From: Acidobacteriota bacterium
Lineage (GTDB): Bacteria > Acidobacteriota > Thermoanaerobaculia > Multivoradales > Multivoraceae
DNA length: 64,000 nucleotides
Reading direction: 5' to 3'
Assembly: GCA_026707325.1 (NCBI GenBank)
Contig: JAPOXA010000042.1
Span: 11,861-75,860 of the forward strand
The notes beneath the pieces are model-generated. The model saw nothing but the letters and a program-made list of their open reading frames with translations. It did not search any database and was not told where the DNA came from. This document shows positions 1 to 29,509 of the stretch, one piece after another. Positions within the stretch are counted from its first letter, which is position 1. Each line of letters opens with the position of its first letter. Position numbers and translations under genes: made by a program.

Positions 1-527
1 CGCTCCGCCAGAGGAACCAACTGTTCCGCGGCCTCGGCCAGGGTCGCTTCGTCGAAGTGCCCGACTTCGAGCGTCCGGCGGTCGCCGAAGTGAGCCGGGC
101 GCTCGCGGCGGGCGACCTCGACAACGACGGCGATCGCGACCTGGTGATCACCAACAACAACGGACCGGTTCGCATCCTGCTCAACCCCGGTCGGCCGGAA
201 CCCGCGCAGTGGGCCGGCGTCGACCTGCGATTTCCCGCCGTAGGAGCCGCCGCCGCGGGGCGGCGCGCCCTCGGCGCCTGGGTCGGTGTGCTGGACGCCG
301 GAAGCAACGAGCTCGTCCGCTGGCGTCGCTTCCATACCGACGGCTCCTATGCGGCGGCAAGCGACCCGCGCATTTCGATCGTCGGCCACGACGAGCCGCC
401 CGAGGTCGTGGTCGCGTGGCCCGACAGCGAGCAGGAGGCGTTCCGCCTCGGCGGACTGGGCCGCTACTTCACCCTCGTACGCGGCCAGGGCCTGAATGCC
501 GCGCCGTCCTCGGACCGGCGTCCATGA
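1..527 (+). CDS. FG-GAP/VCBS + ASPIC/UnbV (CRTAC1-like) secreted protein, C-terminal fragment; the 5' end lies outside the window
   Basis: The frame is open from nt 3. The translation '..QRNQLFRGLGQGRFVEV..AAGDLDNDGDRDLVITNNNGP..FHTDGSYAAASDPRI..' parallels the C-termini of the full-length paralogs at 2515-4206, 4203-5909 and 35275-36999. Confidence 0.8.
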   Translation, partial: LRQRNQLFRGLGQGRFVEVPDFERPAVAEVSRALAAGDLDNDGDRDLVITNNNGPVRILLNPGRPEPAQWAGVDLRFPAVGAAAAGRRALGAWVGVLDAGSNELVRWRRFHTDGSYAAASDPRISIVGHDEPPEVVVAWPDSEQEAFRLGGLGRYFTLVRGQGLNAAPSSDRRP

Positions 528-2530
528 TCCGTCCCGGCGCTGATCGAGTCTCTGCGTTGGCCCTGACGCTGGCCCTGACCCTGGCGACGCTTCCGGCGCA
601 GGCTCAGACCGCCCTGGAACCGGTCGAACCGCCGCGAATGGACCACTACGAGGGATCGGTGCGAAGTCAACTGGCCCGGGCGCAGAGCGAACTGGACGGT
701 TTGCTGAACGAACCGCGGCCGGACCAGGACCGACTTGCCGAGGCGTTCGGCCGCCTGGGCCAGCTCTACCTGCTGTACGACTTCATGGCGCCCTCCGCCG
801 CGGCGCTCCGCAATGCCCAGGCGCTGGCGCCGGACGATCCTCGATGGTCCTACTACCTGGCGATCAACTATCGCTACGAGGGCGCGCTCGAGGAGTCGGT
901 GGCCGCGCTCGACCGGGTGGTGGCGCTCGTGCCGAACGACCTTGCGGCCCTGACTCACCGGGCCGACATTCGGCTCGAGCTCGGTCTGACGGAGGAAGCG
1001 GAGGTCGACTATCGGCTGGTACTGGAACGCGATCCGGCCAGCTCCGCGGCTCGACTCGGCCTCGGGCGCATCGACTTCGACCGCCGCGACTACGAGTCGG
1101 CACTCGAGGGCTTCGAGCAGGCACTCCGGGGGCAGCCGCCCGGCTCGGTGGTGCATCACCACCTCGGCCTGACGCTGCGCCGCCTCGGCCGTCGGGAGGA
1201 AGCGGCGAAACAACTGGAGCTGAACGACCATCTCAGCGTCGTTTTCCCGGACCCCCTCTTCACGGAGCTGCAACGCCTGAACGTGAGCCGCGAAGCACAC
1301 ATCAAGCGCGGATCGGCCGCGATGCGCCAGGGGAATCCGCGCGCCGCGCTGGCGGCGTTCCTCGACGCCCTGGAAGCCATGCCCGACGACCCGCTGACCA
1401 TCTTCAACGTCGGCATGGCGCTGATCGAACTCGGCGAGAAGGAGGAGGCGGAGGCCCGTCTCAGGCAATCCATCGCGATCAACGACAACTACCGCGATCC
1501 TCAGTACAACCTGGCGCTCATCCTGGCGGAGCGCGGCGACCTGGAGGGTGCGGAACGCCACTTCCGCCGAGCCGCGGAGATCGACCACGAGGACATCGAA
1601 GCGCGAGTCCGGCACGCCGACGCCCTGACCCGGCTGCAACGGTCCGACGAGGCCATCGAACTCCTCGAAGGCGTGCTTGCGGCCGACGCGGCATCGCCGC
1701 TCGCCCAACTGGCGCTCGGCGCCGCGCACCAGAGGGCGGGTTCGGACAGCGCCGCCCGCATCGCCCTGAGCAAGGTACTCGACGCCGCGCCCGGCGCTTC
1801 CGCGGAACGGGCCGAGGCGCACTACCGGCTGGCGGTGCTCGCTGAAGCGAACGGAGCCGCGCAACCCGGCGCCTCCGGGAACGCCGGCGTCTCGCCCGGC
1901 TCGGCGACGCCCGCGCTCAAGGATGCCAACCGTCCCCCGGCCGACAGCGACCCGATCGAGCACCTCCGGCAAGCCATCGAACTCGACCCGGACTTCGCCG
2001 AGGCCCACGCGCTCCTGGGCCGCATGCTGGCGCGCCAGGAGCGCTACGTTGACGGCGCCCGCCATCTGGCGCGAGCCCTCAGGCACGATCCCGCCAACGC
2101 GGACTGGCATCGCGACCGCGCGATGTCACTCATCCTCGGCAAGCGCTACGCCGCGGCGCGGACGGGATTGATGGCCGGCCGGCAGGCCCTGGCGCGACTG
2201 GAGAGCGACTCAGCGAGGGACGCCGTGGACCATCTGGACACGCTGCGGGCGCGACTGCTTGCCGCAAGCCCCGACCCCAGCGTTCGCAACGGCGCCGAAG
2301 CCCTCGACATCGCGCAGCGCCTGATGGCGGACCGACCGTCGATCCAGCACGCCGAAACGGTCGCCATGGCGCTCGCCGAGGTCGGCGAGTTCAAGCAGGC
2401 AGCCGCTCTGCAGCAACAGGCGCTCGACGAGGTGGAGCGCCGGGGCGGCGCCCCGACGGCGGGCCAGAAGGAGCGACTGCGCGCCTACCTGAACGACGAA
2501 CCGGCCCGCGAACCGTGGTTCTCGCCCTGA
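524..2530 (+). CDS. Secreted TPR-repeat protein (668 aa)
   Basis: The ATG at 524 overlaps the upstream stop (ATGA). The N-terminus MIRPGADRVSALALTLALTLATLPAQAQ looks like a signal peptide. The body is made of degenerate 34-aa TPR-type helical repeats. The track start at 209 adds an Arg-rich extension out of frame with gene 1 and was rejected. Confidence 0.85.
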   Translation: MIRPGADRVSALALTLALTLATLPAQAQTALEPVEPPRMDHYEGSVRSQLARAQSELDGLLNEPRPDQDRLAEAFGRLGQLYLLYDFMAPSAAALRNAQALAPDDPRWSYYLAINYRYEGALEESVAALDRVVALVPNDLAALTHRADIRLELGLTEEAEVDYRLVLERDPASSAARLGLGRIDFDRRDYESALEGFEQALRGQPPGSVVHHHLGLTLRRLGRREEAAKQLELNDHLSVVFPDPLFTELQRLNVSREAHIKRGSAAMRQGNPRAALAAFLDALEAMPDDPLTIFNVGMALIELGEKEEAEARLRQSIAINDNYRDPQYNLALILAERGDLEGAERHFRRAAEIDHEDIEARVRHADALTRLQRSDEAIELLEGVLAADAASPLAQLALGAAHQRAGSDSAARIALSKVLDAAPGASAERAEAHYRLAVLAEANGAAQPGASGNAGVSPGSATPALKDANRPPADSDPIEHLRQAIELDPDFAEAHALLGRMLARQERYVDGARHLARALRHDPANADWHRDRAMSLILGKRYAAARTGLMAGRQALARLESDSARDAVDHLDTLRARLLAASPDPSVRNGAEALDIAQRLMADRPSIQHAETVAMALAEVGEFKQAAALQQQALDEVERRGGAPTAGQKERLRAYLNDEPAREPWFSP

Positions 2531-4206
2531 TCCCTGCCCTCGCGGCTGCGCTCGTCGCCGCCGAGACGGGCGCCGCAGCCGGAGGCCTCCGGTTCATCGA
2601 CGCGGCCGACGCCTGGGGCATCGACTTCCGGCACCGCCACGGCGGCCGGGGCGAGTTCTACATGATCGAGACGGTCGGCAGCGGCGTCGTCGCGTTCGAC
2701 TACGACGGGGACGGAGACGACGACCTGCTGTTCGTCGACAGCGGCGAGCCGGCGCCCCACGGCGGCAAGCCGGGCCGGACGACCCTGCTGCGGAACGACC
2801 TCGGCCTGAACGGCCCGCGCTTCGTCGACGCCACGAAAGCCTCCGGCATCCTTCTGGACAGCTACGGTATGGGCGCACTGACGGGCGACGTGGACGGCGA
2901 CGGGGACCCGGACGTTTACCTGACCGCATTCGGACCGAATCGGCTGTGGCTCAACCTGGGGGACGGCGCCTTCAGCCCCGCACCCGAGGACGGCGGGACC
3001 GCCGACCCGTCGTGGAGCGCCTCCGCGGCTTTCGGCGACATCGACCTGGACGGCGACCTCGACTTGTACGTGACGAACTACGTCGACTTCGGCTACGACA
3101 ACAACATCGTCTGCGGCGAGCCGCGCTCATACTGCCACCCGGACGCCTACGACAGCCTGCCGGACCGGTTCTACCGCAACGAGCACCGCCCCGGGCAGCC
3201 CGCCGCCTTCGTCGACGCCACGGCCGAGCTCGGCTTCGGCGACGCCCGGGGCGCCGGACTGGGCGTCGTCATCACGGACCTCGACCACGACCGCCGGCCC
3301 GACATTTACGTGGCGAACGACATGGACCCGAACTTCCACTTCCTCAACCGAAGCACCGACGCGACACCGCGCTTCGAGGACGACGCACTGCTGGCCGGCA
3401 CCGCTCTCTCGGACCGCGGCGAGGCGGAAGCGGGCATGGGAATCGCGGTCGGCGACGTGGACGGCAACGGCTTCGATGACCTGATCGTCACCCATCTCGA
3501 CCGGCAGACGAACGCCCTGTACTCGAATCGCGGCGACGGGCTCTTCCTGGAACGCCGCTTCGTCGCGGGCATTGCCGAGCCGTCCATGCCCTGGGTCGGT
3601 TTCGGCACGGACCTGGCCGACTTCGACCTTGACGGCGACCTGGACCTTGCCGTCGCGAACGGCCACGTGATCCACAACATCTCGGAGCAGGAGGGCTTCG
3701 GCGACGAGATCTACCGGCAGCCCAACCAGTTGCTGGAGAACCAGGGCGGCCGCTTCGCCGAAGTCGAGAACGGCGGCATCGACGCCGTCCGGGTGAGCCG
3801 CGGTCTGGCGACGGCGGACTTCGACCTCGACGGCGACCTGGACCTCGTCGTCTCGAACTGCAACGACCGGGCGGAGGTCTACCGCAACGAAAGCGATCGC
3901 CGCGGCGAGGCGTTCCAGGTCGACCTGCTGGACCGCGGGTCGCCGAACCGGCGCGCGGTCGGCGCCGCGATCGAGGTCCGTTCGACGGCCGGAAGTCAGC
4001 GCCGCGAAGTGCGCGCGGGCTCGTCGTACCTGTCGCAGAACTCGCTCACGCAGACGTTCGGCGTGCCGGCCTCCGACGCGGCCGGCGGCAAGGGCGAAGC
4101 CGAATCGTCCACGGACGGCGTCGAGATCCGCATCCACTGGCCCAGGCAGGGCGGCGTCAGGCTTCCGGGACTGCCCCCCGGACACCGCGTGCGGATCGTC
4201 CGATGA
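2515..4206 (+). CDS. FG-GAP/VCBS repeat + ASPIC/UnbV domain protein (CRTAC1-like), secreted
   Basis: It has repeated Ca-binding-type loops ('FDYDGDGDDDLLFVD', 'GDVDGDGDPDVYLT', 'GDIDLDGDLDLYVTNY', 'ADFDLDGDLDLVVSN') and a C-terminal 'AGSSYLSQNSLTQTFG' ASPIC/UnbV-type segment. The N-terminus is hydrophobic. The start is uncertain: GTG at 2515, or an in-frame CTG at 2527 that would form a CTGA overlap. Confidence 0.9.
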   Translation: MVLALIPALAAALVAAETGAAAGGLRFIDAADAWGIDFRHRHGGRGEFYMIETVGSGVVAFDYDGDGDDDLLFVDSGEPAPHGGKPGRTTLLRNDLGLNGPRFVDATKASGILLDSYGMGALTGDVDGDGDPDVYLTAFGPNRLWLNLGDGAFSPAPEDGGTADPSWSASAAFGDIDLDGDLDLYVTNYVDFGYDNNIVCGEPRSYCHPDAYDSLPDRFYRNEHRPGQPAAFVDATAELGFGDARGAGLGVVITDLDHDRRPDIYVANDMDPNFHFLNRSTDATPRFEDDALLAGTALSDRGEAEAGMGIAVGDVDGNGFDDLIVTHLDRQTNALYSNRGDGLFLERRFVAGIAEPSMPWVGFGTDLADFDLDGDLDLAVANGHVIHNISEQEGFGDEIYRQPNQLLENQGGRFAEVENGGIDAVRVSRGLATADFDLDGDLDLVVSNCNDRAEVYRNESDRRGEAFQVDLLDRGSPNRRAVGAAIEVRSTAGSQRREVRAGSSYLSQNSLTQTFGVPASDAAGGKGEAESSTDGVEIRIHWPRQGGVRLPGLPPGHRVRIVR

Positions 4207-5909
4207 ACGCGCGGTCCTCGGCCAGGCCGCACCCCCGGCCGGCCTGTCCGATCCTGGCGGCCGCCGCTCTGATGGCAGTGCCGATGCTGGCGATCCCCGC
4301 CGCCGCCGGCCAACCGGCCTTCCGTGAGACCGGCGCGGCATGGGGCCTCGAGTTCCACCACAACGCGGGTTTCTCGGGCCGGAAGTACATGGTGGAGACG
4401 ATGGGCGGCGGCGTCGTGCTCTTCGACTACGACGGAGACGGCGACGACGACGCCTTCTTCATCGATGGCGGCCCGCTGCCAAGCTACGAGGGTCCCGCGC
4501 CCCGTTCCCGGTTGCTGCGCAACGACGCCGGGCCGGACGGTCCCCGCTTCGTCGACGTGACGGATCGGTCGAACATCGACTTCGGCGGCTACGGCGCGGG
4601 CGGCGTCGCCGGCGACGTGGACGCCGACGGCGATCTCGACCTCTACGTCACGGCATTCGGCGGCAACCAGCTCTACCTCAACCTTGGCGACGGCGGCTTC
4701 CGGGCGGCCGGGGCCGAGCGCGGCGTCGACGATCCGCGCTGGAGCGCCTCGGCCGCCTTCGGCGATCTCGACCTGGACGGCGACCTGGACCTCTACGTGA
4801 CGAACTACACGGACTTCTCACTCGCGAATCACAAGTTCTGCGGCCTGGGCGGATCGACCGACAGCGCGGGCACCGACGGTGAACCGGGGCGCGGCTACTG
4901 CCACCCGGACATGTACAACGGCGTGCCCGACCGCCTCTACCGGAATGACGGCCGCGGCTTCTTCGTCGACGCCACCGCCGCCAGCAGTCTCGACGGCGCT
5001 GCCGAAGCCGGCCTTGGCGTCGTGATCGGCGACCTCGACGGCGACCGCTGGCCCGACGTCTACGTCGCCAACGACAAGGATCCGAACCTGCTCTTCCGCA
5101 ACCTGGGCAATGGCCGGTTCGAGGACGAATCCCTGCTCTCCGGTGCCGCCTACGACCGAGGCGGCGCCGCCGAAGCCGGAATGGGAGTCGAACTGGCCGA
5201 TCTCGACGGCGACGGACGTCAAGACCTGGTGGTTACCAACTTCGCGCTCGAAACGAACGCCTTCTATCGCAACGCGGGCGAGGGCGTCTTCCTCGACCGG
5301 CGCTTCCCGTCCGGCCTGGCTCAGCCCTCGCTCCAGCGACTCGCCTTCGGCGTCAACGCCCTGGACGCCGACCTCGACGGCGACGTCGACCTGTTCGTGG
5401 CCAATGGTCACATTCAGCCGGAAGCCGCGCGAATCGGCGAGGTCGGAACCTACGAACAGCCGAATCAACTGTTCGAGAACCTGGGCGACGGTCGCTTCAG
5501 GGAGCGTCTCGACGCGGGCCTGGACACGGTACGCACGAGCCGGGGCTCGGCGGTCGCCGACCTCGATCTCGACGGCGACCTGGACATCGTCGTCGTCAAC
5601 TCGAACCAGCCTTCCGAGGTCTACGACAACCGGGCGGGAGGCGGCTGGTTCGCGCTCGGATTCTCGCCCGGGGACGCCGGAAGCGCGGACGCGGTCGGCG
5701 CCGAAGTCGTCCTGACCGCAGGCGGCCGCGCGCAGGTACGGGAGACGCGGGCCGGGTCCTCCTACCTTTCGCAGAGCACGCTCACCGCCTTCTTCGGAGT
5801 CGGCGAAGCGCACCGCATCGAGCGCGTGACCGTGCGCCAGCCCCTCCGGAAGCGGCCGCTGGTCCTGCGCGACCTGCCCGCGAACCGGCGGGTTCGTCTG
5901 CGGCGATAG
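4203..5909 (+). CDS. FG-GAP/VCBS repeat + ASPIC/UnbV domain protein (CRTAC1-like), secreted
   Basis: This is a tandem paralog of 2515-4206 with the same DxDxDG loops and 'AGSSYLSQSTLTAFFG'. Its start forms an ATGA overlap with the upstream stop. The signal-like N-terminus is '..ACPILAAAALMAVPMLAIPAAAGQ'. Confidence 0.9.
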   Translation: MNARSSARPHPRPACPILAAAALMAVPMLAIPAAAGQPAFRETGAAWGLEFHHNAGFSGRKYMVETMGGGVVLFDYDGDGDDDAFFIDGGPLPSYEGPAPRSRLLRNDAGPDGPRFVDVTDRSNIDFGGYGAGGVAGDVDADGDLDLYVTAFGGNQLYLNLGDGGFRAAGAERGVDDPRWSASAAFGDLDLDGDLDLYVTNYTDFSLANHKFCGLGGSTDSAGTDGEPGRGYCHPDMYNGVPDRLYRNDGRGFFVDATAASSLDGAAEAGLGVVIGDLDGDRWPDVYVANDKDPNLLFRNLGNGRFEDESLLSGAAYDRGGAAEAGMGVELADLDGDGRQDLVVTNFALETNAFYRNAGEGVFLDRRFPSGLAQPSLQRLAFGVNALDADLDGDVDLFVANGHIQPEAARIGEVGTYEQPNQLFENLGDGRFRERLDAGLDTVRTSRGSAVADLDLDGDLDIVVVNSNQPSEVYDNRAGGGWFALGFSPGDAGSADAVGAEVVLTAGGRAQVRETRAGSSYLSQSTLTAFFGVGEAHRIERVTVRQPLRKRPLVLRDLPANRRVRLRR

Positions 5910-5918
5910 CATCGCTCC

Positions 5919-8222
5919 ATGTGCAGGTCACGCTTCAGAGGCCGCGTCTTCGGCGGCTTCCGGGCCCAGGCCGAGCCGCGCGTTCGTCCGCGCGCCGTGA
6001 CCGCGCTGGCCTTCGCCCTTCTCCTGGCCAGCGTGCCGGCGCCCACGAGCGCTCAGGAGCTCCCGGCTGAAGTCGCGGACGCCCTCGCGCTGGCCGCCGG
6101 CGGCGACCTGAGCGGCGCCATCGCAGCCATCGAGACCTTCTGTGCGACCGTCGACGCCCCCGACGCCGCCTTCGCGGCGCTGGGGGCGCTTCACGTCGAG
6201 GCCGGCAACCCCGAGCGCGCGCTGGACGTGCTGCGGCCGCTCATGGACCGCGAACCGGCCGACGCCGGCGTCCTCTACAACGCGGGCCGGGCCGCCGAAG
6301 CGCTCGGTCGGCCGGAGGAAGCGGCGAACCGCTACCGGCAGTCCCTGGCGATCCAGCCGCGTTCGCCGGCGCTGCGGTCGCTCGGCATGATGCTGGGCCG
6401 GCACGGATACACGGCCGAGGCGTACGCGTTCCTCCAGCCGTGGACGAACGCGAACCCGAACGACCTGGATGCCCGCGTCGCCGCCGCGGCCGGCGCCATC
6501 GCGCTCGAGCGTGCGCCCGAGGCGGAAGCCCTGCTCGAAGGACTGCCGGGAGACGACCCGGGCGTGAAGATGCTGCGAGCCCAGCTTCTGCTCCAGCAGG
6601 CCGATCCGTGGGGCGCGATCAACGAACTCCAGGCGATCGCCGACGACCCGCCGCCGACCATCGAAGGCGGAATTCGGCGGACGCTTGCCCGCGCCTACCT
6701 CGTCGTGGGCGAAGCCGAAGGCGCCCTGGAGCAGTTGGAACCGCTCGACGTCGCCGGACCCGAGGACGCCGTGCTTCTGGCCAGCGCCTGGTTCCAGGCC
6801 GGGCGCATGGACGAAGCCATCGAGGCGCTGGCGCCGTACGCGGAACCCTTGCTGACCAGCCCGCCCCCGGAAGCGCCGCCACCGGTGGCCCGCGACATCG
6901 TGCTGGAGTACGGCCGCTACCTGCACTCCTCCGGCGACGCCGAGCGGGCGGTCCCCTTCCTGCGCCTCGCCACCGAACTCGACGCCGGCAAGCCCGACGC
7001 CTACCAGGCGCTCGGACAGGCGCTCGCCGCCAGCGGCGAGCGCGAAGAGGCACGCGAGATCCTGGAGCGCTTCCAGGAACTCTCCCGCGACGCGAGCGAC
7101 GAGGTCGCCTCCGTCAACCGGCGCCGGAGCGACATCGCGGACCCGACGGGCCGCGAAGTGCGCCAGGCTCTGGAACTTGCAGCGGCCGGCGAGGTCGACG
7201 CCGCGCTCGACATCCTCGCCCGCGAAGCGCAGCTCGCCTCGACCGACCCGCGGCCCGTCTACGCCGCATCCTCGATCCTGCTGGACGCCGGACGCAACGA
7301 GGAGGCGCTCGCCGCCGCCGACCGGGCGCTTGCTGTGGCGCCCGAACGCGCCGACGGCCTCTATCAGCGCGGCGCCGTGCTCATGTCGCTGGAACGGTTG
7401 GCCGAGTCCGAAGAGATGTTCCGCCAGGCGCTCCAGGCCCAGCCAACCCATACGGCAACGCTGTCGGACTACGCGGTACTGCTGATGAGCGGAAACCGGA
7501 ACGGAGAGGCCGCCGGCCTGCTGGAGCGGCTGCTCGAGCTGCGACCCGGCGACGCCGCGGCCCGCGGCCATCTCGACCGGCTTCGCGCGGCGCGTGGGTC
7601 GGACGGCGGCCCGCACGAAGAACTGCCTCCGGCGGCGCTGGGGCGCGAGCTGATGCGGAACCGGGACTTCCGCGCCGCCGAACCGCCCCTCGACAGAGCC
7701 GTCCTGCTCGATCCGACGGACGCGAGCCTCCGTATCGACCTGGCCTCGGCCCTCTGGGAGAACAACAAGCCGGCGGAGGCCGAACTGCACGCTCGCGAGG
7801 CTGTTGCGCTCGAACCCTCCTCGGCGGAGGCGCACCGGATGCTCGGCGGTCTGCTGCACTGGCGCGGCGAACACCTCCAGGCGGCGGAGTCCCTCGAACG
7901 CGCGGCGGCGCTGGCCGAACCGGACGCGGCGCTGCTCGTCGACCTGGCTCGGGCCTGGGATGGCGTGGCCACCGACAGCGCAGGAACGGCGGATGAACGG
8001 ACGCGCCTGGGCAAGGCCGAAGACGCCTACCGCCGGGCGATCGTTGCGGCCCCCGATCACAGCGAAGCCATCTACGGTCTCGCCAGGGTGCTGCAGCGCC
8101 TCGGACGGGGGGACGAGGCGGCGATCCTGATGGAGCGTTACATGGAACTCTACGGTGAAGATCAGCGGGCCACGCAGGAGCAGGGGCTGGCGACGGCCGA
8201 GGGCCCTCCGGAAGGCGACTGA
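5919..8222 (+). CDS. Secreted TPR-repeat protein (767 aa)
   Basis: TPR-type helical repeats run throughout, and '..AVTALAFALLLASVPAPTSAQE' looks like a signal peptide. The gene follows the CRTAC1-like gene after a 9-nt gap. The exact start was not verified. Confidence 0.85.
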   Translation: MCRSRFRGRVFGGFRAQAEPRVRPRAVTALAFALLLASVPAPTSAQELPAEVADALALAAGGDLSGAIAAIETFCATVDAPDAAFAALGALHVEAGNPERALDVLRPLMDREPADAGVLYNAGRAAEALGRPEEAANRYRQSLAIQPRSPALRSLGMMLGRHGYTAEAYAFLQPWTNANPNDLDARVAAAAGAIALERAPEAEALLEGLPGDDPGVKMLRAQLLLQQADPWGAINELQAIADDPPPTIEGGIRRTLARAYLVVGEAEGALEQLEPLDVAGPEDAVLLASAWFQAGRMDEAIEALAPYAEPLLTSPPPEAPPPVARDIVLEYGRYLHSSGDAERAVPFLRLATELDAGKPDAYQALGQALAASGEREEAREILERFQELSRDASDEVASVNRRRSDIADPTGREVRQALELAAAGEVDAALDILAREAQLASTDPRPVYAASSILLDAGRNEEALAAADRALAVAPERADGLYQRGAVLMSLERLAESEEMFRQALQAQPTHTATLSDYAVLLMSGNRNGEAAGLLERLLELRPGDAAARGHLDRLRAARGSDGGPHEELPPAALGRELMRNRDFRAAEPPLDRAVLLDPTDASLRIDLASALWENNKPAEAELHAREAVALEPSSAEAHRMLGGLLHWRGEHLQAAESLERAAALAEPDAALLVDLARAWDGVATDSAGTADERTRLGKAEDAYRRAIVAAPDHSEAIYGLARVLQRLGRGDEAAILMERYMELYGEDQRATQEQGLATAEGPPEGD

Positions 8223-11374: not shown

Positions 11375-11598
11375 GAGTCCTCCCCTCGTTCTCCGACCGC
11401 CGATCTGCCCAAGCATCCTACTACCCGGCACCCGGGGCCAAGCCGAAGCCGGCGGCCCGGAATCCGTCTAAGTCCGAAACGGCCTTCTCGCGCCCCAGTC
11501 GAATCGGTGGAACGCCCGTAGGCGTGCCGCAATCGGACCTGTCGTCTCCTGTCATTGGAACGGCCGGCTTCTGCTCCTCAACTCGCGGCCCAAGCCCC

Positions 11599-14593: not shown

Positions 14594-14728
14594 GCGTTGA
14601 ATACTCCCTCCAAGGTGTGTTCTGCGGGAAACCGGCGCCGCTCACGCGACGCAGAGCGACCTCCCGCGGTTTGGGAAGAGCCTGATCGGCTCGCCAACAG
14701 TACTAGAAACCACCGCAAGACGTGTGCC

Positions 14729-14751
14729 AAAACGGCCGTAGGCCGGCCGTT
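14729..14751 (-). promoter_or_regulatory. Terminator/attenuator-like hairpin inside the 5' leader of the TonB-dependent receptor gene
   Basis: The minus-strand sequence is AACGGCCG-GCCTA-CGGCCGTT-TTGG, an 8-bp stem that runs into four U residues. It lies about 140 nt upstream of the start codon. There is no upstream same-strand gene for it to terminate. Confidence 0.3.
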
Positions 14752-15161
14752 GCTGACGGTGGGAAGAAACCCGCTCTGTCGCGGGTTTGCGGGCATGTAC
14801 GGGTTTCGGTGCGCCAAATTGGCGCCCCGCCACGTACCGACCGATTCAAGTAAGTGCTCCACGTTCAATCTCTTGAAGCTACTCGCCATGCCAGTCATGC
14901 CGAAAGCAGTTGCCCGTCATCCGACCTTCGACTGACCAGCCTCCTCGTGCGGCAAAGCCGTACCGAAGAGCCCTGGCCGCCGATGGGACCTGAATCAGCG
15001 ACGAGTATCCGTCCGAGCAAGTCGCGACGGATACGCCTCGGGGAACAACCTGTCGAGTCCATGCATCGTACAGTAGAGAGAGTCGGTTGTCTACGGCAGC
15101 GGTTCCCGGACAGTTTCGGAACCCTCGCCGCCGCGACCGCCGGCATCCGAAGCGTCACGCC

Positions 15162-16310: not shown

Positions 16311-16331
16311 CGCCCGGGGACCCCGGAGGCC

Positions 16332-18602: not shown

Positions 18603-18663
18603 GGCCCGCGGGGCCGAAGCGAGGCGCCGACCCCACGAAACGCCAAGGACCAGGGAGCCCGAA

Positions 18664-20823
18664 ATGAACGAACGCAGGCTCAATGACCGTCCATCCTCCC
18701 ATCTGGCGCGCGCCGCGTCCCTGTTCTGCGCGGGCGCCCTCCTGCTCGCGGCCGCCTCGGCCGATGCCCAGCGCAACCGCCGGCAGCGGCAGGCGCAGTT
18801 CAGCGACACGACCACCGTGACCGTGGTCGAGGTCCCGGTGCAGGTGACGAGCGGCGGCAACCCGCTGCGCGACCTCACACGGGACGACTTCGAGCTGCTC
18901 GACGGCCGCAAGCCGGTCCAGATCACCGGCTTCGACCGCGTCGATCTCTCGACCGTCGAGGGCAAGGCCACAGACGAGCCGGTGCCGGCCGCGGCACGCC
19001 GGCACTTCCTGCTTCTGTTCGACCTGCTGTTCACGACGCCCGACTCCGTGGGCCGCGCTCAGCAAGCGGCGGCCGATCTCGTGCTCCGCGAGCTGCACCC
19101 CACCGACCTGGCCGCCGTGGCGCTCTACGACACCCGGCCCCGGCTGGTGCTGGGCTTCACCTCCGATCGCAGCCAGCTTCGTCAGGCGATCGCGACCCTG
19201 GGCAAGATCGAAACCGGCCGGGCGGTTCGCGATCCCCTGGGCCTGGTGATCGCCGACATGGGCGGCGAGTTGCCCACCGACAGCGGTCTCGGCGAAACCG
19301 CGGACCGCGCGGGGCTGGATTCCGAGGCCATGCTCTCCCAGGCGCGCAGCGAACTGGCAACCCTGCAGGCGACCGCCGACCGGGACCGGGCCGCCAGCGA
19401 CATCGCCGCCCTGACGTCCGGGATGGGCGAGCTTGCCGCCTGGATGGGAACCGTGCAGGGGCGCAAGCACGTCGTCTTCCTGTCGGAAGGTTTCGACAGC
19501 TCGATCGTCGTCGGCAATCGCGGCCTCACTTCCCAGGAGCAGGACCGGATGCTGGAACTCCAGCAGGCAGCGACCGACGGTCAGTCCTGGCGGGTCAACA
19601 ACGAGGAGATCTACGGCAGCACTTCCGCCCAGAGTGCCATGAACAAGATGCTGACCGCCTTCCGCGAGGCGGACTGCGCGATCCAGAGCGTGGACGTGAG
19701 CGGCGAAGTCCTGACCGAGGGCCAGAGCAACCGCGACTCGCTGCTCATGATGGCCCACGACAGCGGCGGCGAGCTGTTCGCCAACTTCACCGACCTGGGA
19801 GACGCAATGTCCGAGATGCTGGAACGGACGAGCGTCACCTACCTGCTCGCCTTCCAGCCCAACGACGTGAAGTACGACGGCAAGTTCCGCAGGCTGCGGG
19901 TGCGGATCAAGGACGCGCCCCGGGGTACCCAGATCGTCCACCGGCCCGGCTACTACCCGCCCAAGCCGTACGCGCAGACGAATCCGTTCGAACGGGCGCT
20001 GACCTCGGCCCAGCAGGTGATGGGCGGCGTGGAGACGGGCGAGATCGACGCTTCCGTGCTCACGGCCGGCTTCGCCGCCGCGAGCGGCAAGGCCTACGCC
20101 CCGGTGCTGATCGAGGCAAGGGGCGAAGACCTGATCGGCGGCCTCCAGCAGGGGACGGTGCCGCTCCAGGTCTATGCCTACGCGCTCGACGAGCACGGCA
20201 TCGTGCGCGATTTCTTCGTCCGCGCCATGGGGCTCGACCTGACCCAGGCCGGCGCCGCGCTGCGCCAGAGCGGGCTCAAGTACTGGGGCCACTTCGACCT
20301 GGACCCGGGCAGCTACTCCGTGCGGGTGCTGATCCGCAACGACGCCACCGGCCACCGCGCCCTGACCACCTCGACGCTCGACGTACCCGGCCAGGCGGCG
20401 ACGCTGCAGCCGCCGCTGTTCCCCGAACAGCCCGGCAAGTGGGTCCTGATCCGCGAAGAGGAGTCGGAACAGCGCAAGGACGTCGGCTTCCCCTTCCTGC
20501 GCAGCGGCGAGCCCTTCATCCCCGCGGCGCGGCCCGAGATCACGGCGGGCGGCGAGACGCCGATCAGCCTGGTGGGCACGGGCCTCGACGCGGGCCGCGT
20601 GTCGGTCCGCACCCAGGTCTTCACCTCCGACGGCCAGCAGGTAGCCGACGGCGGCGAGATCGTCCTCGCGCCCGACGCCCAGGCCGGTTCGGGGCTGTCG
20701 CAGCTTTCCGGCGTCTTCAGGGCGGGCAGGAAGCTGTCGGCCGGCGAGTACACCCTGTCCGTGATCGTGACCGATCAGGCGAACCGGGAGCACTCCTCGT
20801 CGACGCCGATCCGCGTCTTGTAG
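18664..20823 (+). CDS. VWA-domain protein of the TIGR03436 type, paralog 2
   Basis: 'VTVVEVPVQVTSGGNPLRDLTRDDFELLDGRKPVQITGF' and 'RRHFLLLFDLLFT' are collinear with paralog 1. A GGGAG Shine-Dalgarno lies upstream of the ATG. The signal peptide is '..LFCAGALLLAAASADAQ'. Confidence 0.85.
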   Translation: MNERRLNDRPSSHLARAASLFCAGALLLAAASADAQRNRRQRQAQFSDTTTVTVVEVPVQVTSGGNPLRDLTRDDFELLDGRKPVQITGFDRVDLSTVEGKATDEPVPAAARRHFLLLFDLLFTTPDSVGRAQQAAADLVLRELHPTDLAAVALYDTRPRLVLGFTSDRSQLRQAIATLGKIETGRAVRDPLGLVIADMGGELPTDSGLGETADRAGLDSEAMLSQARSELATLQATADRDRAASDIAALTSGMGELAAWMGTVQGRKHVVFLSEGFDSSIVVGNRGLTSQEQDRMLELQQAATDGQSWRVNNEEIYGSTSAQSAMNKMLTAFREADCAIQSVDVSGEVLTEGQSNRDSLLMMAHDSGGELFANFTDLGDAMSEMLERTSVTYLLAFQPNDVKYDGKFRRLRVRIKDAPRGTQIVHRPGYYPPKPYAQTNPFERALTSAQQVMGGVETGEIDASVLTAGFAAASGKAYAPVLIEARGEDLIGGLQQGTVPLQVYAYALDEHGIVRDFFVRAMGLDLTQAGAALRQSGLKYWGHFDLDPGSYSVRVLIRNDATGHRALTTSTLDVPGQAATLQPPLFPEQPGKWVLIREEESEQRKDVGFPFLRSGEPFIPAARPEITAGGETPISLVGTGLDAGRVSVRTQVFTSDGQQVADGGEIVLAPDAQAGSGLSQLSGVFRAGRKLSAGEYTLSVIVTDQANREHSSSTPIRVL

Positions 20824-20833
20824 CGGACGGTGC

Positions 20834-22675
20834 CTAGCGAACGTCGACGCCGCCGCGCAGGAACGACTGGCGACCCCCGATGTCGTCGCGCAAGCCGACG
20901 CCGATGTCGTGGTAGCCGGCTTCCATCGTGACCTCCAGGCCGTAACGCCAGAAGCCTCCCTCGATCTCCCCGAGCCGGTCCTCCGGCACGGTGATCGTCA
21001 ACTCCGTCAGGTGCGGCTCGGTCGCGTGATCGCGCTCGTCCTTCGCCGCCAGCCAGAGCTGGATGCGACCATGGTGGGCGCCGTCCCGCGGGATCAGCGC
21101 GAGTTCCTTCCACGCCACCTCGATCACTACCGGCACGTCGTAGTTGCCGTCCGGGCGTCGCTTCGCCGGCAGGCTGTCGACCCGCACGCCGAGCGGATTC
21201 TCCTGCATGTTCAGGTTGAGCGCCGAGAGGGTGCCCTCCTTCATCCGCGACTCGACCGTCTTGTCGCGGTAGCCCCTGCGGTGGCGAACGGAGGCCCCGC
21301 GCGGCCTGTTCTTCCAGCGTACGTCGACCGTGTGGTAGCGCCCGGCGACGACCGTCGCCGCCGGCATGTAGCCGAGCGAGTAGTAGTTGCGGAAGTCGTC
21401 CGCGATCTTGAGCAGATCCGGCATCACGCGGTTCGCGTTGACCACCGCGCGTCCGCCCGTTTCCTCGGCCATGAGCTGGAGCGGCGCCTGGAGGTTCGTC
21501 AACTGGATCTGGTCGATCAGCGACGCCTGCCCCGGCGCCCCCGCGACCTGGCCGTCCACCGTGCTCTGGGACAGGACCGTCAGCCCGCGGGCGTCGATCG
21601 TGTAGAAGCTGGTCCGATTCGCGTTCGCCCCCGCCGCGAGTTGCTGGAACCGCCTGGACATGTCGTACTCCGACATTTCGATCAGGGACACGGACCGCTC
21701 GTAGAGCTGCTCGACGAAGTAGAAGACGTCCTCGCCCGCGATCATCGGGATGCCGTCGGCGACGTAGATCACCGCCTTGCGGCCCGGCGCCGCCGAGAGG
21801 TTCTCCACCACCCGCGTCAGTCCGTCGATGGCCAGGTGCGTGTCGTTGCGGACCGAGCCGGCATAGGCCATCAGAGCGGTGCGCGCGAAACTGGCGCCGC
21901 CGCCGACCGTCAGCCCCGCACGCTCGGCCGCGGCGATCCCGGGCCGGTTCTCCATCGACTCTTCGTTGTTCACGTCGTTGACGTTGTTGATCAGGTCGCG
22001 GCGCTCGTTGTTGCGATGGAGCCGCTGGGCGGAGACCTCCTCCAGATCGAGCAGCGCGCGGTTCAACTCCTCGCGATTGTTGGTGAACGGCATGCGCAGG
22101 TTCAGCGCCGGGTCGAAGCTGGCCAGCATGACCTTGTCTTCGGGCCGCAACTGCTCCCGGATGAAGGCCCGAAGCTCCCGCAGCACCCGGTTCCGGTTGA
22201 ACGGGGTCAGGTTGTAGTTGTCGATGTAGACGGCGACGTGGAGCGCCTGTTCCGCCGGAATCTCCGGCGGCGCCCGGCGCAGCCGGTCGGCTTCCACGGG
22301 GTCCTCGGGAAGGGGCGGCAGGAGAGGCCGCGCCTCGACTTCGCCGCCGCGGCGGACGAACAGTTCGTCGTCGCGAAGTTCCACCGCGTAGAAATTGCTG
22401 ATCGGAACCGGCCGGCCGTCGACCCGGAGTTCGAAGTCGTCGGGACCGAGCCCGAGCACCGGCTTGCCGTCGGCGCCGGTGACGTACACGTCGATGTTCA
22501 CGACCTCGACGTTGACGACCTCCGTGAAGCCGGGGCCGGACGGAGCGGGTCCGGACGCCGGCTGCGGCTGGACCGCCGCCGGCTGCGTCAGCGCCGCGCA
22601 GAGGGAGACGCCTCCGGCCAGGAGGGCCGGACGGAAGTGCGAGTACCGATGAGGCGCGGAGCGGTTCGCCGACAT
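20834..22675 (-). CDS. VWA-domain protein of the TIGR03436 type, paralog 3 (divergent)
   Basis: 'VVNVEVVNIDVYVTGADGKPVLGLGPDDFELRVDGRPVPISNF' matches the same family architecture. I prefer the start at ATG 22675 (MSANRS..LLAGGVSLCAALTQPAAVQ). The track start at 22741 would overlap the upstream gene by 38 nt. Confidence 0.8.
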   Translation of the reverse strand: MSANRSAPHRYSHFRPALLAGGVSLCAALTQPAAVQPQPASGPAPSGPGFTEVVNVEVVNIDVYVTGADGKPVLGLGPDDFELRVDGRPVPISNFYAVELRDDELFVRRGGEVEARPLLPPLPEDPVEADRLRRAPPEIPAEQALHVAVYIDNYNLTPFNRNRVLRELRAFIREQLRPEDKVMLASFDPALNLRMPFTNNREELNRALLDLEEVSAQRLHRNNERRDLINNVNDVNNEESMENRPGIAAAERAGLTVGGGASFARTALMAYAGSVRNDTHLAIDGLTRVVENLSAAPGRKAVIYVADGIPMIAGEDVFYFVEQLYERSVSLIEMSEYDMSRRFQQLAAGANANRTSFYTIDARGLTVLSQSTVDGQVAGAPGQASLIDQIQLTNLQAPLQLMAEETGGRAVVNANRVMPDLLKIADDFRNYYSLGYMPAATVVAGRYHTVDVRWKNRPRGASVRHRRGYRDKTVESRMKEGTLSALNLNMQENPLGVRVDSLPAKRRPDGNYDVPVVIEVAWKELALIPRDGAHHGRIQLWLAAKDERDHATEPHLTELTITVPEDRLGEIEGGFWRYGLEVTMEAGYHDIGVGLRDDIGGRQSFLRGGVDVR

Positions 22676-22703
22676 GACGCGGAAGAGACTAACCCGTTTG
22701 GGC

Positions 22704-24896
22704 CTACCGCGAAGCGGCGAGCAGCCGCAGTACCTCGGCATCGGGCCAGCGCCGCAGTGCCTCGCCGAGCAGGCCGTCGGCCGAGCGCTCGTCGTTCATC
22801 GCCCGGAGCGCCCGCACGGCCTCGGCGTAGGCGGCCGGATTCGGATTCACCGTGACCATCTCCTGGAGCGTGCGGCCGACTTCGCCGCCTCGTCCGGCCA
22901 GGGCCTGGAGGAAGGCCAGCGACGAGTACGCTCCCAGCAGATCGGGCCGCAGGCCGATGGCGTCCCCGTAGGCGCTCCCGGCCTCCTCGTCCCTGCCCAG
23001 AGCCGCCAGCGCGGCGCCCCGGTAGAGATACAGGTGTCCGAGGATCTCCCGGTCGCCGCGGTCGCCGAACTCGGCCAACACCTCGTCGCTCAGCTCCAGG
23101 GCCTCCTCGTAGCGGTCCTGGCTGTTCAGCCAGACCGTCTTCGTGATCAGCGGTCTCACGTGGAAGCCGCGCTCGGCTATCGCGCGTTCCAGGTACTTCC
23201 CGGCCGCTTCCAGGTCGCCCTCCAGCAACGCCGCCTGGGCGAGCACGTCGTTGGCCATCGGCGAGCGGTCCACGACCGCCAGGGCGTGCTCCCGAGCCTC
23301 GTCGACCCGGCCTTCCAGCAGCAACAACTCCGCCACCTTGAGGCCGGCACTCGAAGCGTCGCCCGCGGACTCCTCGAACGCCTTGCGGTACGCCTGAAGC
23401 GCCTGCCCGGGAAGCGCGCGCCGCTCCAGAAGGTCGCCCAGTTGCTGCCAGGCCAGCACGAGCTGCGGCTCGGCGGCGAGCACTGCCCGTAGCGCCTCTT
23501 CCGCCTCCGACAGATCGCCGCTCTCGATCAGCCGGGAGGCCCGGCCCAGGTCGGCAACGACGCCGATGCGGCTCTTCGGGTCCGCCAGCGACTCGGCGCC
23601 GGAGCGCGCACCGCCGGACAGGTAGCCGAGCGATTCCAGCCGGCGGCGGGTCTCGGGATCGTCCTCGGCCGGCGAGGTCAGCGTGCGGTCGATCGCCCGA
23701 AGAGCCGCGCGCAGGCGCCGCGCCGCCGCCCGCTCCTCCTGGATCACGTTGTTGCGCTCTCCCGGATCCTCGGACAGCCGGTAGAGCTCGGGATCGGGCG
23801 ACTCGATGAAGTGCAGATCGCCTTCGACGATCGACGCGAGATCGCTCCAGCCGAAGTGGATACGGGGATACACGCTCTCGGAGACGATCCGTCGGGGCGC
23901 GGCGCCCGGGGAAGCCGCCTCGGGCGCGAGCAGATCCAGCCCGGCCAGCCCCACGGGCGCCGCCAGCTCCGCAACCGGGTACACCGTCGGCGCGACATCG
24001 CTGAGCTGGGCGCCGGCCGTGATGCGTTCGCCGCCGCGCTCGCCTCCCGGGAGCTTGAAGATCAGGGGCACCTGGATCGTCTCGCGGTAGATCAGGATCA
24101 GGTGATCCATCTCGCCGTGGTCCATCAAACCCTCCCCGTGGTCCGAGAGCAGAACGACCAGCGCCTCGTCGTAGACCCCAAGCTCCTCGAGACGCCCGAT
24201 CAGGCCGGCGACCACCGCATCCGCGGCGGCCACCTCCCCGTCGTAGGGGTCGTCGTAGCGGCCGGCAAACGGCGGCGGCGGCGCGTACGGGGCGTGCGGC
24301 TCGTACAGGTGGAGAAACAGGAAGAAGGGCGAACCCGCCACCCCTCCGAGCCACTCCGACGCAGCCGCAAGCGTCTCCGCCCCGGGACGTTGAAGCCGCC
24401 CCAGTTGCCGCCCGGTCTCGAATCCGACCTCGTCGTCGTAGACGTCGAACCCCCTGGCGATCCCGGTCCCGGAGCGCAGGACGTAGGATGAAACGAACCC
24501 TCCGGTCGCGTAGCCGGCTTTCCCGAACTCGGCCGCCAGCGTCGGGATCGCCTCGTCCAGGCGGTAGCCCGCGTTGTCTCGCACGCCGTGCTCCGACGGC
24601 AGCAGGCCAGTGAACACGCTGACATGGGAAGGCAGGGTGACGTTGACGTGCGTGTAGGCACGCTCGAACAGGATGCCCTCGGCCGCGAGGCGGTCGATGG
24701 CGGGCGTCTCGACCCCGTCGTAGCCGTAGGCCGGCAGCCGGTCCGAGCGCAGGGTGTCGATCGAGATCAGGACGATCGGCGGCCGCGGCGTCTCGGCGGC
24801 CGGCGACGGACCGTCCGGCGGCGACGGACCGCAGGCCAGCGCGACCAGCGCCACGGCGACGGCCAGCCGCCGAGCGGGAGCACCGGGGGCGATCAC
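22704..24896 (-). CDS. Alkaline-phosphatase-superfamily (sulfatase-like) domain + TPR fusion, paralog 2; probable lipoprotein
   Basis: Motifs are 'IVLISIDTLRSDRLPAYG', 'VNVTLPSHVSVFTGLLPSEHGVRDN', 'LHLYEPHAPYAPP' and 'LLSDHGEGLMDHGE', followed by TPR repeats. GTG 24896 (VIAPGAPARRLAVAVALVALAC) forms a GTGA overlap with the upstream stop. The 883-aa track ORF's N-terminal extension was rejected. Confidence 0.85.
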   Translation of the reverse strand: MIAPGAPARRLAVAVALVALACGPSPPDGPSPAAETPRPPIVLISIDTLRSDRLPAYGYDGVETPAIDRLAAEGILFERAYTHVNVTLPSHVSVFTGLLPSEHGVRDNAGYRLDEAIPTLAAEFGKAGYATGGFVSSYVLRSGTGIARGFDVYDDEVGFETGRQLGRLQRPGAETLAAASEWLGGVAGSPFFLFLHLYEPHAPYAPPPPFAGRYDDPYDGEVAAADAVVAGLIGRLEELGVYDEALVVLLSDHGEGLMDHGEMDHLILIYRETIQVPLIFKLPGGERGGERITAGAQLSDVAPTVYPVAELAAPVGLAGLDLLAPEAASPGAAPRRIVSESVYPRIHFGWSDLASIVEGDLHFIESPDPELYRLSEDPGERNNVIQEERAAARRLRAALRAIDRTLTSPAEDDPETRRRLESLGYLSGGARSGAESLADPKSRIGVVADLGRASRLIESGDLSEAEEALRAVLAAEPQLVLAWQQLGDLLERRALPGQALQAYRKAFEESAGDASSAGLKVAELLLLEGRVDEAREHALAVVDRSPMANDVLAQAALLEGDLEAAGKYLERAIAERGFHVRPLITKTVWLNSQDRYEEALELSDEVLAEFGDRGDREILGHLYLYRGAALAALGRDEEAGSAYGDAIGLRPDLLGAYSSLAFLQALAGRGGEVGRTLQEMVTVNPNPAAYAEAVRALRAMNDERSADGLLGEALRRWPDAEVLRLLAASR

Positions 24897-25450
24897 TTCA
24901 GTTCGAGGGTCGTCTCGACGGTCTGCGGCAAACCGGAGACCTCGCCGACCGGCGTCCACACCTCGACCGTCTCGCCGTCTTCCTCGACCTCGGACACGTC
25001 CACCCAACGCGCCTCGCGCAGGCGAACGAGCACTTCGAGCTTGCCGTCTGCCGGCGCCGGACGGCCGGTCTCCGAGGTCCAGAAGTTGAAGAGGGCGACG
25101 TCCTCCGACTCGCCCGCTTCGATCACCTGCAGGAAGAGCTGCTTCTCGTAGACGGGCAACGGCGTCCCGTTCAACTCGACGTCGAAGCCGAAACTGTAGA
25201 CGGCCCGGCTGCCGCTGTTCACGATCGTCGCGGTCAGCTTGCAGAGCGTCTCGGCGCCGGGGGCGCTCGGCGCCACCTCGATGCCGGAGAGGGCCACTTC
25301 CGGCCGGTCCTCCGCGATGACCGCCGTGACGGCAAGCAGGCAGAACGCGGACCACACGCTGACGGTTCGTGACCGCACTGACCGGCTGCGTGACCGGGTC
25401 GTTCCACCGGAAGCTTCGGTCCCTGACGCCGCGTTGAGCACGGCATGCAT
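24893..25450 (-). CDS. Small membrane-anchored or secreted hypothetical protein, probable Ig-like/CARDB-like beta-sandwich
   Basis: From ATG 25450 there is a basic N-region, then the hydrophobic 'VSVWSAFCLLAVTAVIA', then beta-strand-pattern sequence 'LCKLTATIVNSGSRAVYSFGFDVELNG'. GC3 looks high by eye. It is translationally coupled to the downstream AP-TPR gene. The fold assignment is inference. Confidence 0.55.
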   Translation of the reverse strand: MHAVLNAASGTEASGGTTRSRSRSVRSRTVSVWSAFCLLAVTAVIAEDRPEVALSGIEVAPSAPGAETLCKLTATIVNSGSRAVYSFGFDVELNGTPLPVYEKQLFLQVIEAGESEDVALFNFWTSETGRPAPADGKLEVLVRLREARWVDVSEVEEDGETVEVWTPVGEVSGLPQTVETTLELK

Positions 25451-29496: not shown

Positions 29497-29509
29497 GGCG
29501 AATCAGTTC

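Follow-up and report, generated by a model that had tools for sequence, protein, structure and literature searches.

A conserved cell-envelope gene cluster of Thermoanaerobaculia with an Oar-subclass TonB-dependent transporter, a transglutaminase-like/TPR lipoprotein and VWA proteins at its core

In Bacteroidota, the RagAB and SusCD systems use TonB-dependent transporters (TBDTs) with an N-terminal extension to import peptides and glycans alongside surface binding proteins. The precedent for a TBDT that moves a Sec-exported protein outwards is Oar of Myxococcus xanthus, with PopC as its cargo; Oar is needed for protein secretion across the outer membrane, and its subclass of TBDTs is defined by a PF13620 N-terminal extension (PMC6434023). 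In Acidobacteria, TBDTs, VWA proteins and ASPIC/UnbV proteins form large expanded paralog families, as described for Ca. Solibacter usitatus (PMC3174227). With paralog families of this size in the phylum, shared composition alone proves nothing, and it is synteny that shows more than chance. Here we analyze a stretch of 64,000 nucleotides (the window; all positions refer to it) from an uncultured sponge-associated member of the Thermoanaerobaculia (Acidobacteriota). It comes from an 81.6-kb metagenome scaffold (ROBB21-1_SAMN13943207 scaffold_167), has a G+C content of about 70%, and its nearest genomes are metagenome-assembled genomes (MAGs) of Thermoanaerobaculia and 'Candidatus Multivorans'. 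The window contains a cell-envelope gene cluster that is lineage-specific and conserved within Thermoanaerobaculia; it is not one indivisible 25-kb system. Its core consists of four genes (numbering as in Table 1), an Oar-subclass TBDT (G8) and a divergent operon of a transglutaminase-like/TPR lipoprotein (G9) and two VWA proteins with immunoglobulin (Ig)-like domains (G10 and G11). A CarboxypepD_reg-TPR protein (G7) and alkaline-phosphatase (AP)-superfamily-TPR enzymes with a Thr nucleophile (G6 and G13) are near-constant accessories. DUF3179 (G15), the third VWA protein (G12), the CARDB-like protein (G14) and the CRTAC1-like propeller/TPR pairs (G1 to G5) are facultative ones.

In a literature search, no described system of this composition was found. 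Like the SusC/SusD and RagA/RagB loci, the cluster combines a constant TBDT bearing a CarboxypepD_reg-type extension with helical-repeat partners, lipoprotein enzymes and Ig-like binding proteins, has no dedicated ATPase and lies near extracellular peptidases. It differs from them in the lack of a SusD/RagB-family Pfam match, the gene after the TBDT gene encoding a CarboxypepD_reg-TPR protein, and in the lack of constant glycoside hydrolases. Moreover, its binders are VWA proteins of the TIGR03436 family, its TPR-fused enzymes carry transglutaminase-like or Thr-type AP-superfamily domains, and it belongs to a different phylum. With Oar, G8 shares the PF13620 extension, which would be followed by a putative plug with a TonB-box-like segment and a putative large barrel, a likeness by architecture only. 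The oar gene adjoins the genes of its Ton system in M. xanthus (PMC6434023); a statement that the cargo gene is also adjacent was not found.

The closest 'integrin-like' bacterial assembly is the Myxococcus gliding module, in which VWA/MIDAS proteins (CglB/CglD; MIDAS, metal-ion-dependent adhesion site) are combined with barrels (GltA/B/H) and TPR proteins (GltC/D/E). Unlike the lipoproteins CglB and CglD, the VWA proteins described here carry no lipid anchor, and the Agl motor and the inner-membrane Glt parts are missing from our cluster; the gliding module itself has neither transglutaminase-like or AP-type enzymes nor an FG-GAP propeller. The Bat operon and related MoxR-VWA systems likewise encode tandem VWA genes with TPR proteins, but they have membrane-anchored VWA proteins, a MoxR AAA+ ATPase and DUF58, and no TBDT. 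A Bat/MoxR system was ruled out, since MoxR and DUF58 were neither found at 1–32 kb of the window or in the 9.5 kb upstream nor assigned in related loci, and since transmembrane anchors are lacking from the VWA proteins. In LapG/LapA and TgpA-type systems, a periplasmic transglutaminase-fold enzyme with a Cys-His-Asp triad is tied to a VWA-containing exported protein, similar to the arrangement found here. Unlike LapG/LapA, the cluster has no LapD, type I secretion genes or giant RTX adhesin, and its G9, a lipoprotein with fused TPR repeats, gave no PF06035 match at E up to 10. Metazoan integrins and CRTAC1 resemble the locus by the combination of Ca-binding FG-GAP propellers and VWA/MIDAS domains, here within one neighbourhood. 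In contrast to integrins, propeller and VWA domains reside on separate soluble proteins without transmembrane or cytoplasmic parts, and the propellers are dispensable in many versions of the cluster. Because it lacks the defining features of the compared systems, the cluster can be likened to a TBDT-centred utilisation or display locus but is a member of none of these systems.

Conservation of gene order was analyzed in two directions. For the forward test one genome per species was scanned with G9, which gave 65 species-level loci with 53–97% G9 identity that were mapped by tblastn; 43 loci with complete 10-kb flanks make up the full-flank set. All 52 loci with enough sequence have G9 followed by at least two co-directional TIGR03436 VWA genes, and a divergent TBDT gene ends within 1.5 kb upstream of G9 in 49 of 50. 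In the full-flank loci, AP-TPR and CarboxypepD_reg-TPR genes are each present in 38 of 43, and at least three VWA genes in 35. The reverse test used 78 metagenome loci chosen by the G10 family. There, a transglutaminase-like/TPR gene precedes the G10-type VWA gene in 32 of 36 cases, and the divergent TBDT gene occurs in 17 of 19. An earlier interpretation of the window from its letters and open reading frames (the sequence-only reading) had made its proposal of one exported system dependent on such synteny, and for the core the orthologs are indeed syntenic in both directions. Beyond the cluster, the neighbouring genes differ from lineage to lineage (GH3, glyoxalase, RNase Y, threonyl-tRNA synthetase, ribosomal proteins), indicating that gene order has decayed around a retained core. 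Further, the MAG CATOTG01 carries two copies of the cluster in different arrangements (L010 and L022). One shares the arrangement of the window; in the other, the propeller/TPR block is inverted and G11 and G12 are separated by a reprolysin gene. Such a pair of copies suggests that the cluster was duplicated as a unit. A reprolysin-fn3 gene between G11 and G12 was observed in 19 of 33 mid-identity loci. In other loci the genes G9, G10, G11 and AP-TPR form a single-strand series that continues with CRTAC1-like/TPR genes (L052) or a CARDB-like gene (L051).

The linkage extends to a locus with a G9 of only 42% identity (L076), where G9 is flanked by a CarboxypepD_reg-TPR gene and, at its opposite end, by a G10-like VWA gene (48% identical) whose coding region overlaps that of G9. 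Below about 40% identity it is lost, so that a linkage of VWA genes with the transglutaminase-like/TPR family as a whole was rejected; it is a property of one subfamily, on present data within Thermoanaerobaculia. Among the distant homologs, one with about 37% N-domain identity (L079:10001-14563) precedes the genes of a PF00884 sulfatase and of a radical-SAM/SPASM protein resembling a sulfatase maturase, an adjacency of transglutaminase-like/TPR and AP-superfamily genes in another lineage without VWA genes. A very distant homolog (25% identity; L072/L073:8362-9879) is divergent from the gene of a GWxTD-domain protein, another uncharacterised exported family. According to the record names, close relatives of the cluster come from sponge and coral assemblies and distant ones from other environmental assemblies. 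A sponge-specific island of 'eukaryote-like proteins' was ruled out by the occurrence of the cluster in many non-sponge MAGs and metagenome contigs.

The assignment of G8 to the Oar subclass is based on its PF13620 CarboxypepD_reg extension (E 5.4e-15, 55.9 bits vs a cut-off of 32.3). A TonB-box-like segment, ETITVTS, at aa 113–119 is kept in 50 of 64 homologs, and the length of the protein is compatible with a 22-stranded barrel. A comparison of G8 with PDB sequences gave no match. The strong hairpin (14 bp, 11 G-C pairs) with a T-run 3′ of the TBDT gene agrees with the terminator that had been proposed there. It is the only exception in a promoter and terminator scan whose counts were otherwise at chance level. 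The 568 bp that separate the TBDT gene from the divergent G9 operon contain one promoter-like match on the minus strand (15093–15065).

For G9, an alignment of 36 sequences revealed four invariant residues, the lipobox Cys30 as well as Cys120 (GNCLSF), His161 (SRGH) and Asp176. In the AlphaFold2 (AF2) model (predicted local distance difference test, pLDDT, 84.9), Cys120 begins a helix (120–133), and His161 and Asp176 are associated with the following strands (161–168, 171–175). With Pfam, only TPR exceeds the threshold in the protein itself, and PF01841 (Transglut_core) reaches 13.9 bits vs a cut-off of 23. At the family level, PF01841 is matched by 29 of 29 N-terminal domains (best E 4.4e-6), and distant homologs (phmmer E 1e-14 to 6e-8) carry confident matches. 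Due to the invariant Cys-His-Asp triad and this family-level support, we accept the transglutaminase-like assignment, which the sequence-only reading had made. A Foldseek search of the whole model against the PDB returned TPR proteins only, as the TPR part dominates, and gave nothing on the N-terminal domain. A profile of this domain against PDB sequences had the transglutaminase-like 3ISR as its best, non-significant match (E 1.1). The LapG family PF06035 was not among the G9 matches at E up to 10 nor among those of the family at E up to 1. The domain may act as a protease, as a cross-linking enzyme or otherwise. Its family comprises 584 clusters at 50% identity, nearly all of them about 350–400 aa long.

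In the AF2 model of G10 (pLDDT 76), a small beta domain at the N-terminus is followed by a VWA domain with a long helical insert and by two to three Ig/FnIII-like sandwiches. Its DxSxS MIDAS motif is located directly after the first VWA strand (113–120). In the alignment, the motif D-L-[ST]-[FY]-S is found in G10 and its 32 orthologs, and G10 is the only one of the three VWA proteins of the window that has it. It is degenerate in G11 (D-L-L-F-T) and G12 (D-N-Y-N-L). Genes of the MIDAS-degenerate G11 type occur in two to five tandem copies in many metagenome loci (L098, L099, L107, L118, L120, L122, L140, L152, L156–L158). G10 has its top Foldseek matches in RbmA, a biofilm scaffold protein of Vibrio, and in adhesion molecules of the Ig type, and factor XIII barrels, ANTXR2, ITIH1 and integrin alphaX-beta2 are also found; since the TM-scores are low (0.1–0.2), the likeness applies at the domain level only. 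Searches of the VWA proteins against PDB sequences (phmmer, profile) gave nothing useful. Apart from N-terminal signal peptides, no C-terminal hydrophobic segments or transmembrane anchors were seen in them.

Within the AP superfamily, enzymes with Thr or Ser nucleophiles catalyze phosphoryl transfer and those with formylglycine act on sulfate esters. G6 and G13 resemble S1 sulfatases in sequence and contain metal-ligand motifs (IDT..RxD, SDHGE; DHG metal motifs). Their nucleophile motif, T-L-P-[SA]-H, is found in 69 of 69 AP-TPR homologs, both proteins included, and the C/S-x-P-x-R motif is missing. Formylglycine sulfatases acting on sulfated sponge glycans were therefore ruled out, and G6 and G13 are probably phosphoesterases, as judged from their motifs. 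The third PF00884 gene of the window, in contrast, keeps C-S-P-S-R. G6 is probably a lipoprotein with its true start further upstream. The coding sequence of a lipoprotein-type signal (..AAAAVALVGLVVSAC) lies before GTG 10355, which is the first canonical start (10355–10403, minus strand). The sole in-frame CTG seen far enough upstream, 10403–10401, overlaps the G7 stop codon (cTGA). Most orthologs of the sponge clade (L007–L040) have a conserved h-region and Cys without an ATG, GTG or TTG early enough, and a distant ortholog (L066) has an ordinary ATG start. Initiation of G6 may thus be non-canonical or coupled to termination, possibly from CTG 10403.

G1, G3 and G4 have the CRTAC1 architecture of FG-GAP repeats followed by UnbV_ASPIC; the UnbV_ASPIC match exceeds the Pfam cut-off for both G3 and G4, whereas that of the truncated G1 stays below it. 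The start of G2 overlaps the stop of G1, and stop/start overlaps recur between neighbours in this block. In the full-flank loci, CRTAC1-like genes are present in 26 of 43 and large TPR genes in 34, and the block is absent from reduced versions of the cluster (L042, L043, L076). In distant lineages, CRTAC1-like/TPR pairs adjoin the core on varying sides and strands (L057, L060, L061, L067; L089–L093, L151). A single complex of propeller, VWA, TPR and enzyme components, as put forward in the sequence-only reading, stands only in part. The domains hold and the core is syntenic, but the VWA proteins also occur without the propeller block, which is no obligate partner. The proposed 'integrin' pairing of propeller and VWA proteins would be facultative, with joint presence in the 26 loci mentioned. 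To the TBDT, the most constant companion of the VWA operon, the sequence-only reading had assigned no role.

Two further genes belong to the accessory part. A CARDB-like gene of the G14 type was found in 15 of 43 full-flank loci, and in L051 it is co-directional with G9–G11 and the AP-TPR gene. DUF3179, represented in the window by G15 outside the interval originally considered, separates G9 from G10 in the same orientation in L045, L049 and L067, and it does so in 12 of 52 G9–G10 junctions of metagenome loci as well. This recurrent position points to DUF3179 as probably a further component of the cluster, as far as gene order and domain matches tell. The same placement between a G9-type gene and the first VWA gene was also noted for L054 and for L085, L089, L093 and others; in L075, DUF3179 occurs within about 8 kb of a distant transglutaminase-like homolog.

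The gene map of the window was derived from frame-specific G+C, open reading frame lists and independent scaffold gene calls, which all agree. Four blocks had been delineated from the sequence within 1–25450, namely (a) with G1 to G5 on the plus strand, (b) with G6 to G8 on the minus strand, (c) with G9 to G11 on the plus strand and (d) with G12 to G14 on the minus strand, and Pfam, NCBIfam and the scaffold gene calls reproduced their coordinates, strands and nearly all of the domain calls. The count of six TPR proteins was correct as well, and domain scans and gene calls agree that this interval encodes no regulator, ATPase or inner-membrane protein. The signal peptides or lipobox-type Cys residues reported for nearly every protein can be read in the translations. 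All products carry Sec-type or lipoprotein-type signals, that of G6 being located upstream of its first canonical start. An Rfam scan of the whole window gave zero RNA families. The borders of the island are arbitrary: the 5′ propeller gene starts outside the window, preceded by housekeeping genes (ornithine/arginine decarboxylase, glycerate kinase, enolase), and more exported hydrolase genes follow after 25450. There, G15 is joined by a pair of reprolysin-fn3 proteases and a pair of M16 peptidases, the latter accompanied by a fifth CRTAC1-like gene; further on lie an S9 peptidase and a canonical sulfatase. The wider neighbourhood of the cluster is rich in exported peptidases. A RES-domain (toxin-type) gene about 9 kb before the window start (L003:1-250) is unrelated to the cluster.

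Table 1. Features of the window with their positions, strands and supporting evidence.
Feature	Position	Strand	Evidence or remark
G1, C-terminal end of a CRTAC1-like protein (FG-GAP + UnbV_ASPIC)	3..527	+	Pfam; whole gene 581 aa, begins ~1.7 kb before the window
G2, secreted 668-aa TPR protein	524..2530	+	Pfam TPR families, signal peptide, gene call
G3, CRTAC1-like protein, FG-GAP_3 x6 + UnbV_ASPIC	2515..4206	+	FG-GAP_3 E 7e-37, UnbV_ASPIC E 1e-8
G4, CRTAC1-like protein, FG-GAP_3 x7 + UnbV_ASPIC	4203..5909	+	FG-GAP_3 E 1.5e-43, UnbV_ASPIC E 6.7e-12
G5, secreted 767-aa TPR protein, last gene of the facultative propeller/TPR module	5919..8222	+	Pfam
G6, PF00884 AP-superfamily enzyme, Thr nucleophile (T-L-P-S-H), fused to TPR	8223..10355	-	PF00884 E 4.5e-38
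G7, secreted CarboxypepD_reg beta-sandwich + TPR protein	10400..11374	-	Pfam
Hairpin followed by a T-run, located between G8 and G7 (terminator or attenuator)	11638-11608	-	
G8, TBDT of the Oar subclass, 964 aa	11699..14593	-	Signal peptide, PF13620 N-terminal extension, TonB box
Divergent intergenic region, presumed shared promoter/regulatory region	14594..15161		
G9, outer-membrane lipoprotein, divergent transglutaminase-like (papain-fold) domain + ~5 TPR repeats	15162..16310	+	Alignment, AF2 model
G10, secreted TIGR03436 VWA protein	16404..18602	+	161 bits vs cut-off 81
G11, TIGR03436 VWA paralog, 40% identical to G10	18664..20823	+	152 bits vs cut-off 81
G12, third TIGR03436 VWA protein, 24% identical to G10	20834..22675	-	184 bits vs cut-off 81
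G13, second Thr-nucleophile AP-superfamily enzyme (T-L-P-S-H) + TPR, lipoprotein-type signal	22704..24896	-	PF00884 E 7.2e-35
G14, small exported beta-sandwich protein, accessory	24893..25450	-	Weak CARDB match, E 3.4e-4
G15, exported DUF3179 protein	25445..26908	+	Pfam E 3e-71
Two tandem reprolysin-like metalloproteases with fn3 domains	26950-32334	-	
Two M16 peptidases and fifth CRTAC1-like gene (35275-36999)	32.3-37.0 kb	-	
S9 peptidase	40399-42567		
Third PF00884 gene, canonical lipoprotein sulfatase	50812-52254	-	C-S-P-S-R formylglycine motif

As to function, we tentatively favour a TonB-coupled capture, processing and import of a macromolecule, similar to a polysaccharide utilisation locus, a reading inferred from domains and gene order to which we give somewhat less than an even chance. 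All parts would leave the cytoplasm by Sec or Lol, in which case no dedicated ATPase or inner-membrane part needs to be encoded. The proteins would assemble at the outer membrane with the TPR domains as a common docking element. VWA/MIDAS and Ig-like modules, together with the Ca-binding propellers where present, would bind an extracellular macromolecule, likely a protein-rich or phosphoester-containing polymer, and the Cys-hydrolase and phosphoesterase modules would break it down. The TBDT would then take in the products, energized by a TonB system encoded elsewhere that would replace a dedicated ATPase. Three observations favour import: no partner is more constant than the TBDT, the cluster repeatedly has extracellular peptidases in it or beside it, and the enzyme modules are of hydrolase type.

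Several observations weigh against this reading. The barrel of G8 (aa 232–964) has zero Pfam matches even at E 10, and the match of its plug remains sub-threshold (22.4 bits vs a cut-off of 23.9). Neither a SusD-like protein nor a glycoside hydrolase is constant in the cluster loci. The VWA proteins bear ordinary Sec signal peptides without a lipid anchor, and a literature search found no papers on TIGR03436 or 'VWFA-related' proteins. The tight coupling of a transglutaminase-like domain to a VWA gene would fit a processing of the VWA protein equally well. In addition, the synteny was shown within one class, Thermoanaerobaculia, and homologs of the transglutaminase-like/TPR protein at 25–40% identity lie in unrelated contexts without VWA or TBDT neighbours.

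The main alternative, which we regard as rather unlikely, is the display of a surface adhesin or matrix. Here the VWA-Ig proteins would be adhesins or a scaffold, with or without propellers (integrin-like or RbmA-like), exported by the Oar-type TBDT in the way Oar exports PopC; the TPR proteins would be assembly scaffolds, and G9 would cleave or cross-link the VWA proteins as LapG does with LapA or factor XIII with VWA proteins. G9 and G10 are the tightest pair of the cluster, overlapping in L076, and this is explained better by display than by import. The Oar-subclass architecture of G8 with its TonB box, the conserved MIDAS of G10 and its Foldseek matches to RbmA and Ig-type adhesion molecules point in the same direction, although at TM-scores of just 0.1–0.2. 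Export by Sec and a TBDT would also account for the missing ATPase and inner-membrane parts. VWA adhesins that act with outer-membrane barrels and TPR proteins do exist in Myxococcus (CglB and CglD; PMC9946355; bioRxiv 10.1101/2023.10.19.562135), and the tandem expansion of G11-type genes is a frequent trait of surface proteins. However, joint encoding of Oar with its cargo is not known, our cluster is without anchor, sorting signal or motor, its propeller genes are facultative, and the phosphoesterase-TPR enzymes and embedded peptidases have no obvious role in adhesion. An extended version, considered quite improbable, is a matrix-like adhesion layer built without a secretion ATPase, for which MIDAS-bearing VWA-Ig proteins would be exported by the Oar-class TBDT and covalently cross-linked or clipped off by G9, with Ca-binding CRTAC1-like propellers docking onto them.

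Two further explanations are less likely. A Bat-type periplasmic or envelope-maintenance complex (outer-membrane tethering, stress tolerance or assembly of outer-membrane proteins), of which the TBDT would merely be a co-regulated neighbour, appears very doubtful. VWA-TPR operons without a known substrate exist in the Bat proteins of Bacteroides and Leptospira (PMC3557215), and the VWA proteins of the cluster bear Sec signals only, but MoxR ATPase, DUF58 and a VWA transmembrane anchor are lacking. NCBIfam matches of the TPR parts to TPR lipoproteins of envelope assembly such as PilW, Tgl, GltE, BamD and LapB would suit such a complex, yet they are generic TPR matches far under the cut-offs, and the divergent TBDT in 49 of 50 loci argues for the transporter as part of the function. 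That the locus is no single system at all, with separate modules (CRTAC1-like/TPR, TBDT, VWA, AP-TPR) placed side by side and kept adjacent by recent common ancestry, is likewise improbable overall. It would agree with the expansion of TBDT, VWA and ASPIC/UnbV families in Acidobacteria (PMC3174227), with the variable propeller block, CARDB-like gene and third VWA gene, with the arbitrary borders and further exported hydrolases beyond them, and with the distant transglutaminase-like/TPR homologs that lack VWA and TBDT neighbours. Retention of the core down to about 50% identity (52/52 and 49/50, with 32/36 in the reverse test), the scrambled outer flanks and the duplication of the cluster as a block speak against it, as does the recurrence of CRTAC1-like/TPR pairs beside the core in distant lineages. 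This explanation is refuted for the core and possible for the propeller block.

While nothing yet shows an unexpected mechanism, the cluster is a solid entry into large uncharacterised families of Acidobacteria, which are abundant in soils, sediments and sponges and poorly cultured. Their most expanded and least understood exported families include TIGR03436 VWA proteins, Oar-type TBDTs and CRTAC1-like propellers, and the fixed partnership of a TBDT, a transglutaminase-like/TPR lipoprotein and VWA-Ig proteins is a first concrete handle on the function of these families. It also singles out a manageable number of proteins that can be expressed in other hosts, submitted to interface prediction and looked for in metatranscriptomes. 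The Thr-nucleophile result corrects 'sulfatase' annotations that stand behind claims of sulfated-glycan use by sponge symbionts. If the TBDT imports, the cluster would represent a non-Bacteroidota type of macromolecule-utilisation locus; if it exports its neighbours, the single precedent of Oar and PopC would be generalised. An adhesion layer as outlined above, if true, would give protein export by a TBDT a second, genetically linked example and would be a prokaryotic counterpart of the integrin/VWA/transglutaminase matrix toolkit.

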